Positions 11,610-32,172 of a stretch of 64,000 nucleotides of DNA are shown here, in pieces. The notes under the pieces were generated by a model. That model searched no databases. It saw only the letters and a program-made list of their open reading frames with translations, and was not told where the DNA came from. Each line of letters starts with the position of its first letter. Position 1 is the first letter of the stretch. Source of the DNA: a virus; IMG/VR virus record IMGVR_UViG_3300037246_002669, positions 30,913 through 94,912 of that record; one strand, 5' to 3'. The position numbers were made by a program, and so were the translations under genes.

Positions 11610-12035
11610 TTAGGTTGTCGTTGTGGTGGTCGGTGCCGCAGTTGTCGTCGTTGTGGTCGGAGCAACTGTCGTCGTCGTTGTGGTCGGAGCTACCGTTGTT
11701 GTCGTAGTGGTCGTCGGGGGTAAAGTAGTGGTAGTGGTCGTCGGGGGTAAAGTAGTGGTAGTGGTCGTAGGTGCCACTGTCGTCGTGGTCGTTGCAGCAG
11801 AAACCTCCGTCAAATTGAAGGCCACTACTGCCCCATCGGGTTTTCTTATTTTCAACTTTTTCTGTGGATCATTTAGCCACATGGAAAGCCATTTCTGCGT
11901 CGATGCATCCGGATCTGACTGCAAAACCGGCAAGGTAGCGGTATGTTCTTTAGGATCTCCCGAGAAAGTTTTATAGGGTGCCGTCCCTCCCTCCCGGACA
12001 GTAGCGGACTCGTTGTACACTTGTTTCTTCATCAC
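11610..12035 (-). CDS. Virion-module protein with C-terminal Thr/Pro mucin-like tail
   Basis: About 80-aa globular part followed by about 60 aa of TTTTTVAP/TTTTTLPP repeats ending at the stop. GGAGGAG RBS. Confidence 0.85.
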   Translation of the reverse strand: MMKKQVYNESATVREGGTAPYKTFSGDPKEHTATLPVLQSDPDASTQKWLSMWLNDPQKKLKIRKPDGAVVAFNLTEVSAATTTTTVAPTTTTTTLPPTTTTTTLPPTTTTTTTVAPTTTTTTVAPTTTTTTAAPTTTTTT

Positions 12036-13372
12036 TCCTCCGTTCCCAGCAGACTGACCGGGCCTATGTGCAAACGATTAGTGGAAGTTGCAATCCATAT
12101 TTGGTCATCTTCCGTCTCACTCACAATCTCAGTCACCCCGATCACTATTACATTACCTTGAGGTACCCCACTAAATACTGCCTCTCCATTTTCAATCTCT
12201 CGCGGCACTGTTATTTCAATACCCGTTAAATCCAAGGTCGTCGTTGTCGTGGTGGGTCCTACTGTGGTGGTTGTGGTGGGTCCTACTGTCGTTGTGGTGG
12301 TAGGCGCGACTGTTGTGGTTGTGGTCGGCGGTAAAGTGGTCGTGGTTGTGGTCGGCGGTAAAGTGGTCGTGGTTGGAGCCACTGTCGTTGTAGTCGTAGT
12401 CGGTGCCACTGTTGTAGTCGTAGTAGTGCCGGGAATTGTGGTGGTCGTAGTGGTGGGGGCCACTGTAGTAGTGGTTGTGGTGGGGGCCACTGTGGTCGTA
12501 GTAGTGCCGGGAATTGTGGTGGTCGTAGTGGTGGGGGCCACTGTAGTAGTGGTTGTGGTGGGGGCCACTGTGGTCGTAGTAGTGCCGGTAATTGTGGTAG
12601 TAGTGGTCGTGGCCGGTGCCACTGTGGTCGTAGTAGTGGCCGGGGGACTTTGGTAGGGAGTTGTCGGAGGAGTAAAATTTTCTGACCAAACGGCTTCCCC
12701 TGTCACGACACGGAATTGATCCATAAACCCGTTGAGGTAGCCATTTCCTCCAATTTGCCTTCCAAGACGCAAGTAAGTAGGGCATACATTAGAGGAAGTA
12801 TTTAACCAAGTACCGTCAGCAATCCCATCAATATATAGGGTAACTGTGGCAGCTTTCCGGACTACGGCAATGTGATGGAAAACATCATCAGTTATATCAA
12901 TTGTGCCCTCTATTTTACGGGCACTGCGGTAATAAACAATAACTCCGCCAGTTATGTTGTTAATATTTGCCTGGGTTGCGTCTTCGGAGTTCTCTCCGAA
13001 AGCCCAAATCCTTCTGTGGTTACCTCCCGAAGTAGATTTTACGGCAGTTTTGAGCCAACACTCGACAGTGTAATCTCCGGTGGCTAAGACGAATAAAGGA
13101 TCAGTGGGGACATCTATATAAGAGTTAGTGCCATCGAAGTGAATGGATGATGTGCCAAACTTGGCAGCGGCAGTGGCGTGCTGCACGTCTCCATAAAGAG
13201 AGAGAATATGAGCATGAGGGGAACTGTCAACAATGTCTGTAGATCCGTCTGTAGTATCTGACTGAATGCATATACTACCTAATTCATACATGTCAATGGT
13301 AGTGGTGGTAGTGGTAGTGGTAGGGGGTAACGTTGTCGTTGTTGTCGGCCCTACTGTAGTTGTCGTTGTCAT
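12032..13372 (-). CDS. LamG/concanavalin A-like domain protein flanked by Thr-rich mucin-like tracts
   Basis: KFGTSSIHFDG, DYTVECW, FHHIAVVR..VTLYIDG and GFMDQFRV (LamG-like), plus about 140 aa of TTTTTVAP repeats. Confidence 0.85.
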   Translation of the reverse strand: MTTTTTVGPTTTTTLPPTTTTTTTTIDMYELGSICIQSDTTDGSTDIVDSSPHAHILSLYGDVQHATAAAKFGTSSIHFDGTNSYIDVPTDPLFVLATGDYTVECWLKTAVKSTSGGNHRRIWAFGENSEDATQANINNITGGVIVYYRSARKIEGTIDITDDVFHHIAVVRKAATVTLYIDGIADGTWLNTSSNVCPTYLRLGRQIGGNGYLNGFMDQFRVVTGEAVWSENFTPPTTPYQSPPATTTTTVAPATTTTTTITGTTTTTVAPTTTTTTVAPTTTTTTIPGTTTTTVAPTTTTTTVAPTTTTTTIPGTTTTTTVAPTTTTTTVAPTTTTLPPTTTTTTLPPTTTTTVAPTTTTTVGPTTTTTVGPTTTTTTLDLTGIEITVPREIENGEAVFSGVPQGNVIVIGVTEIVSETEDDQIWIATSTNRLHIGPVSLLGTEE

Positions 13373-13412
13373 CTATCTTCCCCTCCCATGATTTGCAATA
13401 AATTGCAAATTT

Positions 13413-13937
13413 TTAGATGAGACCGGCATTCAGGGTAACCCCATTAGAGGTACCGGCAATACTACTGATATGTAGGGCGATTTTCTCCGTTCCTTGGGTT
13501 TTCCATACTAATGTGGGGGATAGATAATTACCGGAAGATGACCCTTTACGAAAAGCAACTGATCCTATGCCCGAAGATTTTGACTCCAAAACTGCAATAA
13601 CTGTAGTGCCTGTGGAATCAAACACAAGAGGAGTCACCACTACATCTCCGTCCACGGCAGAATGTTCCGGGTGTACCACGAGAACACTGTTGTCTCCCAC
13701 ATCCAGCACATTGTCAGTAAGATCAGCCGACAGGTTGGTGAGATCTACCCCATCCGCAACAGTGACTGGGGTACTGCCTCGATTAGCCTCAGGGACGAAC
13801 TGCCTGGACGCGGTATCTACCACCTGTATATGCCTTGTGTTAGCACTCCCGTCCAATTCTGCCGCCTCGCGTGTTGCTATGTTGGGGCCAGTGGTAGCTT
13901 CTCTGACTTGAACTGATGTATTACTCTCAAGTGTCAT
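13413..13937 (-). CDS. Hypothetical virion protein
   Basis: AAGGAG RBS. Beta-rich composition. Located in the tail module. Confidence 0.65.
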   Translation of the reverse strand: MTLESNTSVQVREATTGPNIATREAAELDGSANTRHIQVVDTASRQFVPEANRGSTPVTVADGVDLTNLSADLTDNVLDVGDNSVLVVHPEHSAVDGDVVVTPLVFDSTGTTVIAVLESKSSGIGSVAFRKGSSSGNYLSPTLVWKTQGTEKIALHISSIAGTSNGVTLNAGLI

Positions 13938-13991
13938 GTCTGTATTCTCCTTGATTAAGATTCACGCTATGTAGATTAAATACCATATTAT

Positions 13992-30895: not shown

Positions 30896-30898
30896 TGT

Positions 30899-31177
30899 TT
30901 AGATCCCCAGTGCATTTTGAGTAGGTCGTCCGCTTACATTCTGCCCTACTTCCGCCAGCGCATTCTCTTCCGGCCCGTAGGCTTCCTTCGGCAGGTTCAC
31001 CGGAGCCGGTTCAGGGATCTCAGCCTTGAAGACAGGTTGCCCGTTTTCTCGTAAACGCAACAAAGCCTTTGCTTCTTCGTCTGTAACTTCCTGAGAATGA
31101 CCCCCAGTGAAGTTGATCTTCCGGGCGGGAAGCATCATGATACGCTTGTCGTTTGTCAGCAGTGTAACTTTCGGCAT
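30899..31177 (-). CDS. Small head-module protein
   Basis: ORF directly after the capsid gene with a purine-rich RBS. Confidence 0.6.
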   Translation of the reverse strand: MPKVTLLTNDKRIMMLPARKINFTGGHSQEVTDEEAKALLRLRENGQPVFKAEIPEPAPVNLPKEAYGPEENALAEVGQNVSGRPTQNALGI

Positions 31178-31209
31178 AACTCTATTCCCCCTACAATTGG
31201 AACTTTAAC

Positions 31210-32172
31210 TTACGTAGTCGTGGTGGTGGCACCGAGGGGGTTCAGCCCGATACACTTGACCACAGCATCGACTTCCTCGTACTTCACGTCGAGACGCATG
31301 GTAAGAACGACGATGAGAACACGGGCACGGATGTCACGGTCGGTTTCCATGGAGATCTTTCTCTGTACACCCATGATCAGGTTCTTCGGGTGGGTAAAAA
31401 GAAAACTGTTATCGGGCATGAGCGCCACATCCCGCAGGGGAATGCCGAAGGGAGAGTTGCCCTGCCAGTCGGACTTGACATTTTTGTCACCGAGGGTACT
31501 GAGCCTATCGCCCAGGTAATCCGCGTACTCCAGTTCCGTTGCCGGGGAGGAGAAGAAGGACATCTTTTTTCTGTTGCGAAGATATTTGTTCGGCATCGCA
31601 TGAATGCCTTCTTTAAAGACCGCCCTGGAGATAGCCACGGGGGAAGCGGAATAATCCACCACATGACTTGTGGCCTGTTTGAGCATACCGTCCAGAAGGG
31701 CAAGGTAATCATCGAGGGAGTCGGTATCACCGAGGAGAAGGAGTTCTTCGAGATCCAGAGCGGCACGCTCCGCGATCAGGGACATGATGGTATCTTCGAT
31801 GTTACCTCGTTCGATGTTGTCTTCCAGAACATCATAAGGAATGTGAACTTCGGCGATAACTTCCTTGGTAGTTAGTTCCACCTTATCGGTGGTGGGAGCG
31901 GAGCGGTCACCGGAAGCGAGGGCAGTGCCTGAAACCGGGGCCTTCTTCAAAATCCTCTGTCCGAAGCCGATCTTGTTGATCTGCATCTGGGGAGAATTCA
32001 TGGGAACGGTGCGAATCTGGTTGATGAGCGTGGGCTGATCAATCAGCATCCTGAGAAAGGTGTTGGTTTGGGCGGGGTTAAGGTAACCGCCATTGGATAC
32101 GAGCTGACTTACCGCCAAATCCGCTTTCTCAACTGCGGAACGGGCGTTGACGATGGTAAGGTTGGTAGACAT
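31210..32172 (-). CDS. Major capsid protein (PBSX XkdG-like, HK97 fold) with C-terminal TTTTT
   Basis: GGYLNPAQ, LEDNIERG, AALDLEELLLLGD, LDGMLKQA, FTHPKNLI and RLDVKYEE motifs. Strong codon bias. Confidence 0.9.
   Translation of the reverse strand: MSTNLTIVNARSAVEKADLAVSQLVSNGGYLNPAQTNTFLRMLIDQPTLINQIRTVPMNSPQMQINKIGFGQRILKKAPVSGTALASGDRSAPTTDKVELTTKEVIAEVHIPYDVLEDNIERGNIEDTIMSLIAERAALDLEELLLLGDTDSLDDYLALLDGMLKQATSHVVDYSASPVAISRAVFKEGIHAMPNKYLRNRKKMSFFSSPATELEYADYLGDRLSTLGDKNVKSDWQGNSPFGIPLRDVALMPDNSFLFTHPKNLIMGVQRKISMETDRDIRARVLIVVLTMRLDVKYEEVDAVVKCIGLNPLGATTTTT

Follow-up and report, generated by a model that had tools for sequence, protein, structure and literature searches.

Poly-threonine tags on virion proteins and a GT27-like glycosyltransferase gene co-vary among relatives of an uncultured SIO-2-like siphovirus

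In mycobacteriophages, phage-encoded glycosyltransferases are described as glycosylating the C-termini of the capsid and tail tube proteins (Freeman et al. 2023, Cell Host Microbe 31:1216, cited via PMC12619734 and PMC12363180). In these accounts of that work, Che8, Corndog and Myrna combine phage glycosyltransferases with a short C-terminal element common to capsid and tube. The Che8 capsid and tube end in a terminal Gly-Ser (...KTGS and ...SDGS), whereas the element described here is poly-Thr; Corndog gp41 and gp49, which carry no annotation and whose capsid and tube roles are assumed from size and position, end in ...LVGS and ...KGDS. This route to a sugar-coated virion has so far been shown only in mycobacteriophages, and in a different form. 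The phage analysed here is not an actinobacteriophage but an uncultured ~95-kb SIO-2-like siphovirus from marine sediment. It was studied in a window of 64,000 nt, positions 30,913 to 94,912 of IMG/VR record IMGVR_UViG_3300037246_002669; coordinates below are those of the window.

Threonine tracts on virion proteins

Five minus-strand open reading frames (ORFs), encoding the capsid protein, the Ad1 adaptor, the tail tube protein and the proteins at 29909 and 11610, terminate in five or six threonines (Table 1). The initial annotation had quoted these C-termini, and on re-reading the sequence all five were present exactly as given. The motif is, however, not strictly C-terminal, because a sixth protein, a LamG-like protein, is tagged N-terminally and internally. 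In a six-frame search of the whole 94,912-bp genome, runs of at least four threonines were confined to these six ORFs, with none in the remaining 26,584 residues and none in any other frame. Outside the tagged proteins, threonine accounts for 6.2% of residues, and only ~1e-4 proteins ending in T5 would be expected among 110, compared with five observed. As also claimed initially, the portal protein, which PHROG places at 785-2536, lacks the tag. A 777-aa ORF adjoining the protease gene was considered as the portal and rejected on that placement.

The tracts are nearly pure Thr across the genome, and tag length ranges from 3 to 93 residues. The earlier view that the tag is no trinucleotide microsatellite and is selected at the protein level stood up on both counts. 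The four Thr codons all occur, in proportions near the genomic ones (the capsid tag reads ACC ACC ACG ACT ACG), and the short capsid, adaptor and tube tails have at most 13 nt of DNA in common. In the capsid the tail is an addition past a conserved ...GLNP motif. At this point 114 of 120 homologues with 61-89% identity retain a Thr tract, whose length varies; Thr outnumbers Ser 559:51 (~11:1) in the tails of these 114. The capsid itself belongs to the HK97 fold, with Foldseek matches of its AF2 model to P4/P2, T5 and HK97 capsids, and shares 47-51% identity with the capsids of cultured Vibrio SIO-2-like and Stenotrophomonas DLP5-like phages.

Table 1. Tagged proteins, their Thr tracts and the glycosyltransferase island
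Feature	Coordinates	Strand	Match or remark
Major capsid protein, HK97 fold, 320 aa	31210..32172	-	phrog_1623 E=1e-104; PF05065
Capsid T5 tag	31213-31227	-	immediately 5' of TAA stop; C-terminus GATTTTT
Head-tail adaptor Ad1, 195 aa	30308..30895	-	phrog_477 E=2e-12
Adaptor tail TTTTTVAQSTTTTT	30311-30352	-	C-terminus TTTTTVAQSTTTTT, then stop
Small 'mini-mucin' protein, 128 aa	29909..30295	-	conserved small gene behind adaptor in relatives
Tail tube protein, 202 aa	27943..28551	-	phrog_807 E=2e-26
Tube tail (TTTTTATP)2TTTTTT	27946-28011	-	C-terminal
LamG/ConA-like lectin-fold, fibre-like protein, 446 aa	12032..13372	-	PF13385 E=1e-15
LamG protein N-terminal Thr tag, MTTTTTVGPTTTTTLPPT8	13298-13369	-	
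LamG protein internal Thr-repeat stalk, 134 residues	12236-12637	-	
141-aa protein, orphan ~80-aa N-domain and seven T5-7 blocks (11613-11792)	11610..12035	-	
GT-B (GT1/GT4-like) glycosyltransferase, island core gene	9230..10555	-	PF00534 E=6e-8
GT9 (heptosyltransferase)-like glycosyltransferase, accessory gene	8442..9200	-	PF01075 E=4e-6
GT-A glycosyltransferase, GT27-like, 309 aa, soluble	7092..8021	-	PF00535 E=2e-16
NAD-dependent sugar-nucleotide 4-epimerase, WbgU/WbpP type, accessory gene	6112..7173	-	PF01370 E=2e-64

The adaptor and tube tails behave in the same way as the capsid tail. Adaptor homologues of the tagged clade carry 5-40-residue Thr/Ser tails past a conserved QIRGRSV motif, and the adaptor of an untagged relative terminates ...EPCRELA. 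Tube proteins of tagged relatives terminate ...SPYF.V...T5-13, whereas that of an untagged relative terminates ...SPYFNILMT.

The remaining three proteins contain tandem Thr-rich repeats that form long tracts of the mucin-like PTS type. The 29909 protein has a basic head of ~35 aa that is followed by an invariant Tyr-Pro; the 92 residues after that, at 29912-30187, are T5-7(VAP) repeats, with 11 T5-7 blocks separated by VAP or ITA and PTTTTTT at the C-terminus. A read-through product of the adaptor gene was rejected for this ORF, as among relatives it lies in frame 0, 1 or 2 with respect to the adaptor gene. In the LamG protein, whose PHROG matches are baseplate or fibre-like virion proteins, 16 T-blocks are internal and three N-terminal. 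The 11610 gene, whose start overlaps the LamG gene stop by 4 nt, likewise encodes a protein ending in PTTTTTT; for its N-domain neither a family match nor a homologue was found, and in relatives other Thr-tailed ORFs occupy this position, just upstream of the glycosyltransferase island. From gene position, the 11610 and 29909 products are putative virion proteins.

The glycosyltransferase island and its GT27-like enzyme

Directly downstream of the tail genes, and adjoining the DNA polymerase gene, GT1/GT4-like, GT9-like and GT2 (GT27-like) genes lie together with an epimerase gene at 6112-10555. Homologues of the GT-B enzyme in tagged relatives are 43-54% identical to it, and none was found in the untagged relative G001 and five further untagged records. 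Neither PDB nor phage records gave an informative match to this enzyme, and its placement in GT4 is tentative. The GT9-like enzyme shows weak NCBIfam heptosyltransferase matches, and no homologue was found among the relatives examined; accessory enzymes of the relatives include extra GT1/GT2 enzymes and hexapeptide acyltransferases. Best PDB matches of the epimerase are WbgU (4e-66) and WbpP (8e-59), pointing to a probable UDP-HexNAc 4-epimerase nearest to UDP-GlcNAc/GalNAc 4-epimerases. Most tagged relatives lack the epimerase, so that GalNAc is only a tentative assignment for the sugar.

Judged by predicted fold, profile and motifs (DxH and YGGGEN), the 7092-8021 enzyme is closest to polypeptide GalNAc-transferases (ppGalNAc-Ts, family GT27). 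Its AF2 model (pLDDT 79) has a GT-A fold, for which the top PDB folds in Foldseek were PGANT9, GalNAc-T10/T2/T4 and TgGalNAc-T3 (E ~1e-12, TMq 0.6-0.68); TarS and other GT-A enzymes ranked slightly under these. A profile search of the PDB placed GalNAc-T10 first (4e-9, aligned through both motifs), the leading matches being GalNAc-T10, PGANT9, T7, T12, T4, TgT3 and T1, and other GT2 enzymes aligned over the first ~120 residues only. Residues D40-N41, D99-x-H101, G201-GGE204 and H228 are invariant in an alignment of seven homologues. D99-x-H101 aligns with the metal-binding DSH of GalNAc-T10 and PGANT9, and GIYGGGENF aligns with their IWGGE, the Gal/GalNAc-T motif (WGGEN), of which it is a variant with Tyr in the Trp position and one extra Gly. 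No ricin-type lectin domain was detected, the enzyme having only GT2 Pfam domains (the matched PDB chains are of 480-630 aa), and there is no type II membrane anchor, the sequence opening with the first GT-A beta-strand, MKLSVIVPY. Acceptor preferences of ppGalNAc-Ts are Thr over Ser, with Pro at +3. The Thr-over-Ser bias of the tails and TTTTTVAP, in which Pro stands at +3 of the last Thr, fit these preferences.

Co-variation of tags and enzyme among relatives

Across 20 records, an orthologue of the GT27-like enzyme was present in 11 of 11 tagged phages and in none of nine untagged relatives, a co-variation that rests on about four to six independent transitions and is partly phylogenetically dependent. 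The 11 tagged records, three of them with a non-homologous capsid family, had been examined whole or across the island. The orthologue was present in tagged G002-G007 and absent from untagged G001 and G008-G015, five of which are 99-100% complete. Five fragmentary tagged contigs gave no match, but they stop short of the island and so do not speak against the pattern. One untagged record, G011, holds four other GT2 genes.

The initial annotation had expected homologues from phages lacking glycosyltransferases to be without tails, and G001 conforms to this. Its capsid is 69% identical, the genome is syntenic from protease to DNA polymerase, and the capsid tree nests it among tagged phages. Tails are absent from its capsid, adaptor and tube, as is the small Thr-tail gene. 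Homologues of the three glycosyltransferase genes (GT4-like, GT9-like and GT27-like) were not found in G001, nor were any of 11610, the LamG protein or the epimerase, and the replaced interval showed no glycosyltransferase Pfam domain. As read from its sequence, G001 has lost the tails, the small Thr-tail gene and the glycosyltransferase genes together.

A reverse search starting from the enzyme led to G021, G022 and G023 (99-100% complete by CheckV), which carry a different capsid family, phrog_29. Here, the capsid and two neighbouring head-tail proteins terminate ...TTTTTTA/AA/AP. G024 and the L121 contig have an untagged capsid but carry tags on the adaptor, on a small Thr-rich ORF and on tail proteins. 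The suggestion that the tag is portable thus holds: the set of tagged proteins differs among relatives, and a non-homologous capsid is tagged alongside the same enzyme.

A model of virion glycosylation and its relation to known systems

From the sequences compared, it is likely that the poly-Thr tracts are O-glycosylation acceptors on virion proteins, served by the phage's own cytoplasmic glycosyltransferases. We suggest a model where, late in infection, the soluble 7092-8021 enzyme, as the candidate initiating enzyme and a stand-alone relative of the ppGalNAc-T catalytic domain, would put the first sugar, probably a HexNAc, on disordered Thr runs; GATTTTT and PTTTTTVAPTTTTT peptides would be candidate acceptors. 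The WbgU/WbpP-like epimerase could turn host UDP-GlcNAc into UDP-GalNAc, and the 9230-10555 GT-B enzyme, with lineage-specific accessory enzymes (here the GT9-like one), may extend or decorate the glycan. If an exposed unstructured Thr run alone is the requirement, the tag would work C-terminally, N-terminally or as an internal stalk, and any surface protein could gain or lose it in evolution.

In other siphoviruses, tube C-termini bear external Ig-like domains. In the HK97 fold, the C-terminus reaches the outside of the shell close to the symmetry axes (PMC11664910). By analogy with these phages, the tails would face outward in the present virion, and on the head five or six glycosylated T5 tails could form a tuft at each capsomer, near its axis. 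The long tracts of the 29909, 11610 and LamG proteins might form mucin-like bristles or stalks. Possible roles of such a coat are hydration, anti-fouling, shielding from proteases or from adsorption, or mimicry of host glycans.

We weighed three other explanations. That the Thr tracts are glycosylated but the 9230-10555 GT-B enzyme starts the glycan, like the GT4 pair GtfA/GtfB on serine-rich repeat adhesins, and the GT27-like enzyme merely extends it, seems unlikely. Protein O-GlcNAc transferases of the GT4 family are known and provide a precedent, and the gene is conserved in tagged relatives equally with the GT-A gene and likewise missing from untagged ones. However, the acceptor is overwhelmingly Thr, not Ser, and it is the 7092-8021 enzyme that matches polypeptide-acting GalNAc-transferases over its full length, whereas 9230-10555 lacks an informative match.

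It is still less probable that the tails stay unmodified and act as hydrophilic 'entropic bristles' or as adhesive linkers, and that the island targets DNA hypermodification or the host envelope. DNA glucosylation and serotype conversion are the best-known roles of phage glycosyltransferases (PMC12619734), the island adjoins the DNA polymerase gene, and untagged relatives may hold other GT2 genes (four in G011). This would leave unaccounted for both the joint loss of the enzyme and of Thr tails on three genes 15-25 kb away and the recurrence of the same enzyme and the same tails with a non-homologous capsid; moreover, the nearest relatives of the enzyme act on Thr-rich peptides. Although an S78/XkdF-type protease gene lies beside the capsid gene, tails that serve as assembly or maturation signals cut by the prohead protease, or as sites of another modification such as phosphorylation, are very improbable: the tags are also found on tail and fibre proteins, which never meet the prohead protease, and also N-terminally and internally, no kinase was seen near the module, and the length spread is unlike that of a processing signal.

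Taken further, and only tentatively, glycosylation of the Thr tracts could mean that bacterial viruses have a genuine mucin-type O-GalNAc system. Such a system would combine compact, lectin-less soluble GT27 relatives with clustered GalNAc-Thr on a minimal T3-T6 tag and dedicated 'phage mucins', in a module that moves between unrelated phage lineages. As far as we know, family GT27 is considered to be restricted to animals and some protists. If this interpretation is true, there would be a viral or prokaryotic reservoir of GT27-type enzymes, and bacteria could be made to produce mucin-type glycoproteins with a ready enzyme and a tag of five residues.

As in mycobacteriophages, the surface of the particle would be expected to display hundreds of copies of the glycan. 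Unlike there, more protein classes are tagged (the adaptor, fibre-like proteins and a small protein dedicated to the Thr tail), tags are also N-terminal or internal, and orthology to the mycobacteriophage glycosyltransferases was not found: in a tblastn search of 50,697 phage records, the 7092-8021 enzyme gave one weak match, in a Tunturiibacter phage, and the 9230-10555 enzyme none. Likeness to GT27 lies in the GT-A catalytic domain, the DxH and (W/Y)GG(G)EN motifs and the best fold and profile matches, and likeness to mucin-type O-glycosylation in disordered acceptor runs and tandem repeats that are rich in Thr and Pro, as are mucin PTS domains, a strong Thr preference and a UDP-HexNAc 4-epimerase-like gene alongside. 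In contrast to GT27 enzymes, to which it is just ~15-19% identical, the 309-residue phage protein lacks a lectin domain, a membrane anchor and a secretory-pathway context and would be cytoplasmic. The serine-rich repeat adhesins of Gram-positive bacteria, modified by GtfA/GtfB, likewise combine long hydroxy-amino-acid repeats on a surface protein with cytoplasmic glycosylation by a core glycosyltransferase and variable accessory ones; their acceptors are dominated by Ser, whereas here Thr prevails (559:51), the targets are virion proteins and the tags can be as short as 3-5 residues.

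Threonine tracts in the genome

The window, bases 30913-94912, is part of one phage contig of 94,912 bp assembled from a marine-sediment metagenome. Its GC content is 47%, and the minus strand holds nearly all genes, in the order listed in the table. The portal gene lies ~29 kb downstream of the capsid gene, past the tail genes, the glycosyltransferase (GT) island and the DNA polymerase, and the head module is likewise split by a remote portal in the relative G001 (here, G-numbers are whole relative records and L-numbers IMG/VR loci of relatives). For host prediction, the capsids found in genome contigs (proteobacterial and other MAGs) were only 32-52% identical, with none from the tagged clade.

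Genes of the phage in minus-strand order, with window positions
Feature	Position	Strand	Description
DNA ligase	40070-41359		429 aa; ATP-dependent ligase PHROG match (E=8e-12); block upstream of head genes
777-aa ORF	34510-36843		adjoins protease; no PHROG match
Protease		-	XkdF-type; head block
Scaffold-like protein		-	head block
Capsid	31210-32172	-	HK97 fold; head block
92-aa ORF		-	
Ad1 adaptor	30308-30895	-	
Small Thr-rich ORF	29909-30295	-	
Three neck genes		-	
Tail tube	27943-28551	-	202 aa
Chaperone-like ORF		-	
Tape measure		-	
Tail proteins		-	
LamG protein	12032-13372	-	
11610 protein		-	
Three tiny ORFs		-	
GT-B gene	9230-10555	-	GT1/GT4-like; island
GT9-like gene	8442-9200	-	island
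ORF without family	7990-8520	-	inside island
GT2 gene	7092-8021	-	GT27-like; island
SDR epimerase	6112-7173	-	island; best solved relatives WbgU (4e-66) and WbpP, UDP-GlcNAc/GalNAc 4-epimerases
PolA-UDG fusion	2616-5303	-	895 aa; uracil-DNA-glycosylase-superfamily domain, 3'-5' exonuclease, family A DNA polymerase
Portal	785-2536	-	583 aa; PHROG phrog_12 (E=2e-25); adjoins MuF-like gene

The initial annotation had proposed that C-terminal poly-Thr runs form a portable glycosylation-acceptor tag on surface-exposed virion subunits. All five C-termini that it quoted, those of the capsid, adaptor, tube, small ORF and 11610 protein, were found as described, including the capsid Thr codons ACC ACC ACG ACT ACG. 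A sixth tagged protein, with the N-terminus MTTTTTVGPTTTTTLPPTTTTTTTT, combines a LamG/ConA-like domain (PF13385) with a 134-residue Thr-repeat stalk. GATTTTT, PTTTTTVAPTTTTTT and TTTTTVAPTTTTT are candidate acceptor sequences. A six-frame scan of the whole genome showed runs of four or more Thr to be confined to these six ORFs. The remaining 26,584 residues contained no T4 run and five T3 runs (six expected), whereas five T5 C-termini were observed against ~1e-4 proteins expected by chance at the 6.2% Thr found elsewhere.

Such runs could reflect a microsatellite or an assembly artefact. As the initial annotation had maintained, they are no trinucleotide microsatellite, with all four Thr codons used about as often as in the genome at large. 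At the DNA level, capsid, adaptor and tube have at most 13 nt in common in their short tails, indicating that these tags are independently encoded and alike only at the protein level. The long tracts of the 11610, 29909-30295 and LamG proteins are 81-87% identical over 60-90 nt and include a 32-nt exact block, indicating that DNA was exchanged or duplicated among them. Mixed codons, more than 100 independent metagenomic homologues and short tails without DNA identity therefore rule out both a microsatellite and an assembly artefact. Positive GC-skew bins occurred only at 12001-14000 and 30001-32000, where the minus strand encodes the long Thr tracts in ACN codons; they are a compositional footprint of the tags and not a replication signal.

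Tags on the capsid and its neighbours in relatives

Of 2196 capsid homologues in a protein collection, the 120 best-matching ones (61-89% identical) were scored. In 114 of these 120, the conserved ...GL(N/D)P motif is followed by a tract containing three or more Thr; the tract was 3-14 residues long (median 5), had a Thr:Ser ratio of 559:51, and was often trailed by one or two residues (A, AP or V). Of the other six capsids, three have SSTT or STTSA as their C-terminus; the remaining three belong to a single lineage and stop at ...GLDPDA/L, with no tract. PHROG and tblastn capsid alignments end at approximately residue 310, indicating that the tail is appended to the fold, and the last residues were unstructured in an AF2 model. 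A single-sequence capsid search of IMG/VR gave no match, but an alignment-based profile scan succeeded, with 321 capsid-related stretches confirmed by tblastn; 80 loci were fetched.

Within these 80 loci, clade A (tagged capsids, 58-69% identity) also has Thr/Ser tails on adaptor and tube, and a homologue of the small Thr-rich ORF directly after the adaptor. In alignment A3, members of this small family open with a basic head (~45 residues, rich in Gly, Lys and Arg); the ...KTKV.YP junction that follows is near-invariant, and the Thr tail behind it spans 5-93 residues and is longest in this phage. The common head and junction show that 29909-30295 is a real, conserved gene. As it lies in frame with the adaptor across the TAG stop and four codons, stop-codon read-through of the adaptor was considered; it was rejected because, with the adaptor as reference, all three frames (0, 1 and 2) occur for the small ORF among relatives, and it is also disfavoured by ordinary stop usage (TAA 60, TAG 27, TGA 23) and the absence of tRNA genes from the genome. 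In clade B (54-56% identity), capsid and tube are tagged but not the adaptor, and several relatives carry tags on a ~400-aa post-tape-measure protein or on larger tail proteins. Which proteins are tagged thus changes freely from one relative to another. For the N-domain of the 11610 protein, neither homologues nor family matches were found.

As to whether the tails would face outward, T7 is a precedent for capsid display, and lambda gpV-type tubes carry external C-terminal Ig-like domains. Our tube matches the PHROG 'major tail protein with Ig-like domain' over its N-terminal core only. The untagged G001 tube (L086:4382-5359) has 325 aa as against 202 aa for the tagged tube, with a ~160-residue mid insertion, which may display a protein domain in place of the predicted glycan tails of tagged phages; however, tubes of ~340 aa also occur in the tagged relatives L011 and L018. 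Vibrio phage SIO-2 and its relatives have capsids 47-51% identical to this one, and SIO-2 has a T=12 shell and an 80-kb genome (PMC8814770). An SIO-2-like shell would thus present T5 tails in several hundred copies (roughly 700), one per capsid subunit.

The glycosyltransferase island and its co-variation with the tags

Five genes downstream of the tail genes form an island. For the GT-B enzyme, searches of PDB and of cultured phages were uninformative. The ORF without family adjoins the GT27-like gene in tagged relatives and is also retained in the GT-less G001 (41% identity), which makes a role in the glycosylation machinery unlikely. Relatives carry differing gene sets between the GT-B and GT-A genes (L091:10990-14656, L093:9780-15779, L095:5087-12515, L096:9661-16404), with hexapeptide acyltransferases and extra GT1/GT2 genes seen in the scanned L091 and L093. 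By analogy with O-antigen loci, this variability suggests lineage-specific glycans, and the island layout resembles a variable glycan-tailoring locus. The polymerase fusion adjoins the island in relatives, too.

The GT2 protein gave no match in a single-sequence search of PDB and one weak match among 50,697 cultured-phage records. In an alignment of seven orthologues, D40-N41, D99-x-H101, H228 and G201-GGE204 (GIYGGGENFINF) were invariant. The folds nearest to its AF2 model (pLDDT 79, pTM 0.82) were the polypeptide GalNAc-transferases PGANT9A/B, GalNAc-T10, T2, T4, T7, T12 and Toxoplasma GalNAc-T3 (E ~1e-12, TMq 0.6-0.68), with TarS and other GT-A enzymes just below. A seven-sequence profile searched against PDB sequences ranked GalNAc-T10 first (4e-9), followed by PGANT9 (1.3e-8), T7, T12, T4, TgT3 and T1. 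These alignments span the DxH (DSH in animal enzymes) and (W/Y)GG(G)E motifs and reach positions ~217-278, whereas those to other GT2 enzymes were limited to the first ~120 residues. Approximately 119 clusters (50% identity) among 1.84 billion representatives matched the profile at E<=1e-30, most of them stand-alone proteins of 300-370 aa. In contrast to GT27 enzymes, the starters of mucin O-glycosylation, the phage enzyme has neither lectin domain nor membrane anchor, two architectural features of that family. Overall, profile and model point to a distant relative of GT27 catalytic domains that is predicted to work like them.

The initial annotation had suggested aligning homologues from GT-less phages, and this comparison favoured its reading: nine untagged records have no GT2 orthologue, and G001 lost tails and GTs together. 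In a capsid tree that excluded the tails, G001 (61 kb; capsid 69% identical) falls within clade A, and its synteny with this phage extends from the protease as far as the polymerase and portal. Thr tails are absent from the G001 capsid, adaptor and tube, and with the small Thr-tail gene missing, the adaptor abuts the next gene. We found no homologue in G001 of the GT-B, GT9-like and GT2 genes, the epimerase, the LamG protein or the 11610 protein, and Pfam searches of the replaced interval gave no GT domain, with sub-threshold Stealth matches on one ORF.

In whole-record searches, a GT2 orthologue (37-52% identity) was present in 6/6 tagged records from both clades (G002-G007) and in 0/9 untagged records (G001, G008-G015), five of which are 99-100% complete; a GT-B orthologue was absent from five untagged records. 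The capsid tree requires the tagged state to change at least twice on well-supported branches (five times by parsimony), and GT status agrees each time. Five tagged fragmentary contigs (G016-G020) had no GT27-like match and were left out of this count, G018 and G020 for incompleteness (26-37%) alone. G016 ends 7.3 kb past its GT-B homologue, among Thr-rich ORFs, and the fetched ends of G017 and G019, contigs that stop short, had no match to this phage's proteome. It could be argued that any glycosyltransferase predicts tags; this was rejected, as the untagged G011 has four PF00535 genes and the untagged G009 one, indicating that the tag tracks the GT27-like orthologue and not GTs in general. 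The four GT2-domain proteins of G011, the complete record of L054, are unrelated to the GT27-like enzyme.

In the reverse direction, a profile scan from the enzyme returned 67 IMG/VR loci, and tblastn confirmed 69 GT-bearing stretches. C-terminally Thr-tagged ORFs lay within 10 kb of the enzyme gene in 20/67 loci and in none of the truly untagged capsid control loci. Four long enzyme-bearing records were read whole: G021, G022 and G023 (99-100% complete by CheckV), and G024. The former three have no match to this capsid; their own capsid (phrog_29, ~440 aa) ends ...STTTTTTA/AA, neighbouring ~220-aa and ~208-aa proteins likewise end ...TTTTTTA/AA/AP, and large fibre-like proteins contain internal Thr runs, up to 17 in number. 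In this second lineage of ~85-89 kb, the tagged genes were read at G021 55945-61510, G023 150-5746 and G022 60683-65905 (loci L188-L189, L191 and L199). In G024 and the L121 contig, the capsid is untagged, and the Ad1 adaptor, a 65-aa Thr-rich ORF and minor tail or other tail proteins are tagged. The enzyme thus travels with poly-Thr across unrelated structural modules, which would be difficult to account for if the tags were not its substrates.

Comparison with known virion glycosylation

Overall, coordinated loss, two-way co-occurrence, convergence on capsids without homology and a suitable type of enzyme provide strong comparative support for the proposal that the poly-Thr tracts are a portable glycosylation-acceptor tag. 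That sugar is attached, which sugar it would be, which enzyme would initiate and what role the coat would have are inferred. The proposed system would consist of a minimal poly-Thr acceptor that could be added to whichever virion proteins are exposed, a transferase resembling above all the animal starters of mucin glycosylation, variable tailoring enzymes arranged like an O-antigen locus, and a small protein with no recognisable function other than bearing a Thr tract. If confirmed, phage surfaces in sediments and waters would be glycan-coated and not bare protein, with a bearing on adsorption, decay, aggregation and host recognition; GT27-like enzymes would reach beyond eukaryotes, and the small soluble enzyme-and-tag pair could serve glyco-engineering.

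A literature search for poly-Thr tags on phage virion proteins or capsids found no paper. To our knowledge, experimental support for phage virion glycosylation comes from mycobacteriophages only, and the mycobacteriophage glycosylation paper by Freeman in 2023 reportedly found little sign of it among phages at large. Mycobacteriophages O-glycosylate capsid and tube C-termini with their own GTs (Freeman 2023, as cited in PMC12619734 and PMC12363180). In the Che8 record, the capsid ends ...FNKTGS and the tube ...QYSDGS; Corndog gp41 ends ...PLVGS and gp49 ...IKGDS (genes unannotated, capsid and tube roles taken from size and position). The tag known so far is thus a Gly-Ser terminus, not a Thr run, and the Che8 and Corndog enzymes are unrelated in sequence to the GTs of this phage. 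The proposed system would have the logic in common with the known one. They differ in acceptor chemistry (predicted here to be multi-site and mucin-like), enzyme family, range of tagged proteins, phage lineage and habitat. If confirmed, the poly-Thr system would be a second, mechanistically different form of phage virion glycosylation, predicted for widespread uncultured environmental phages.
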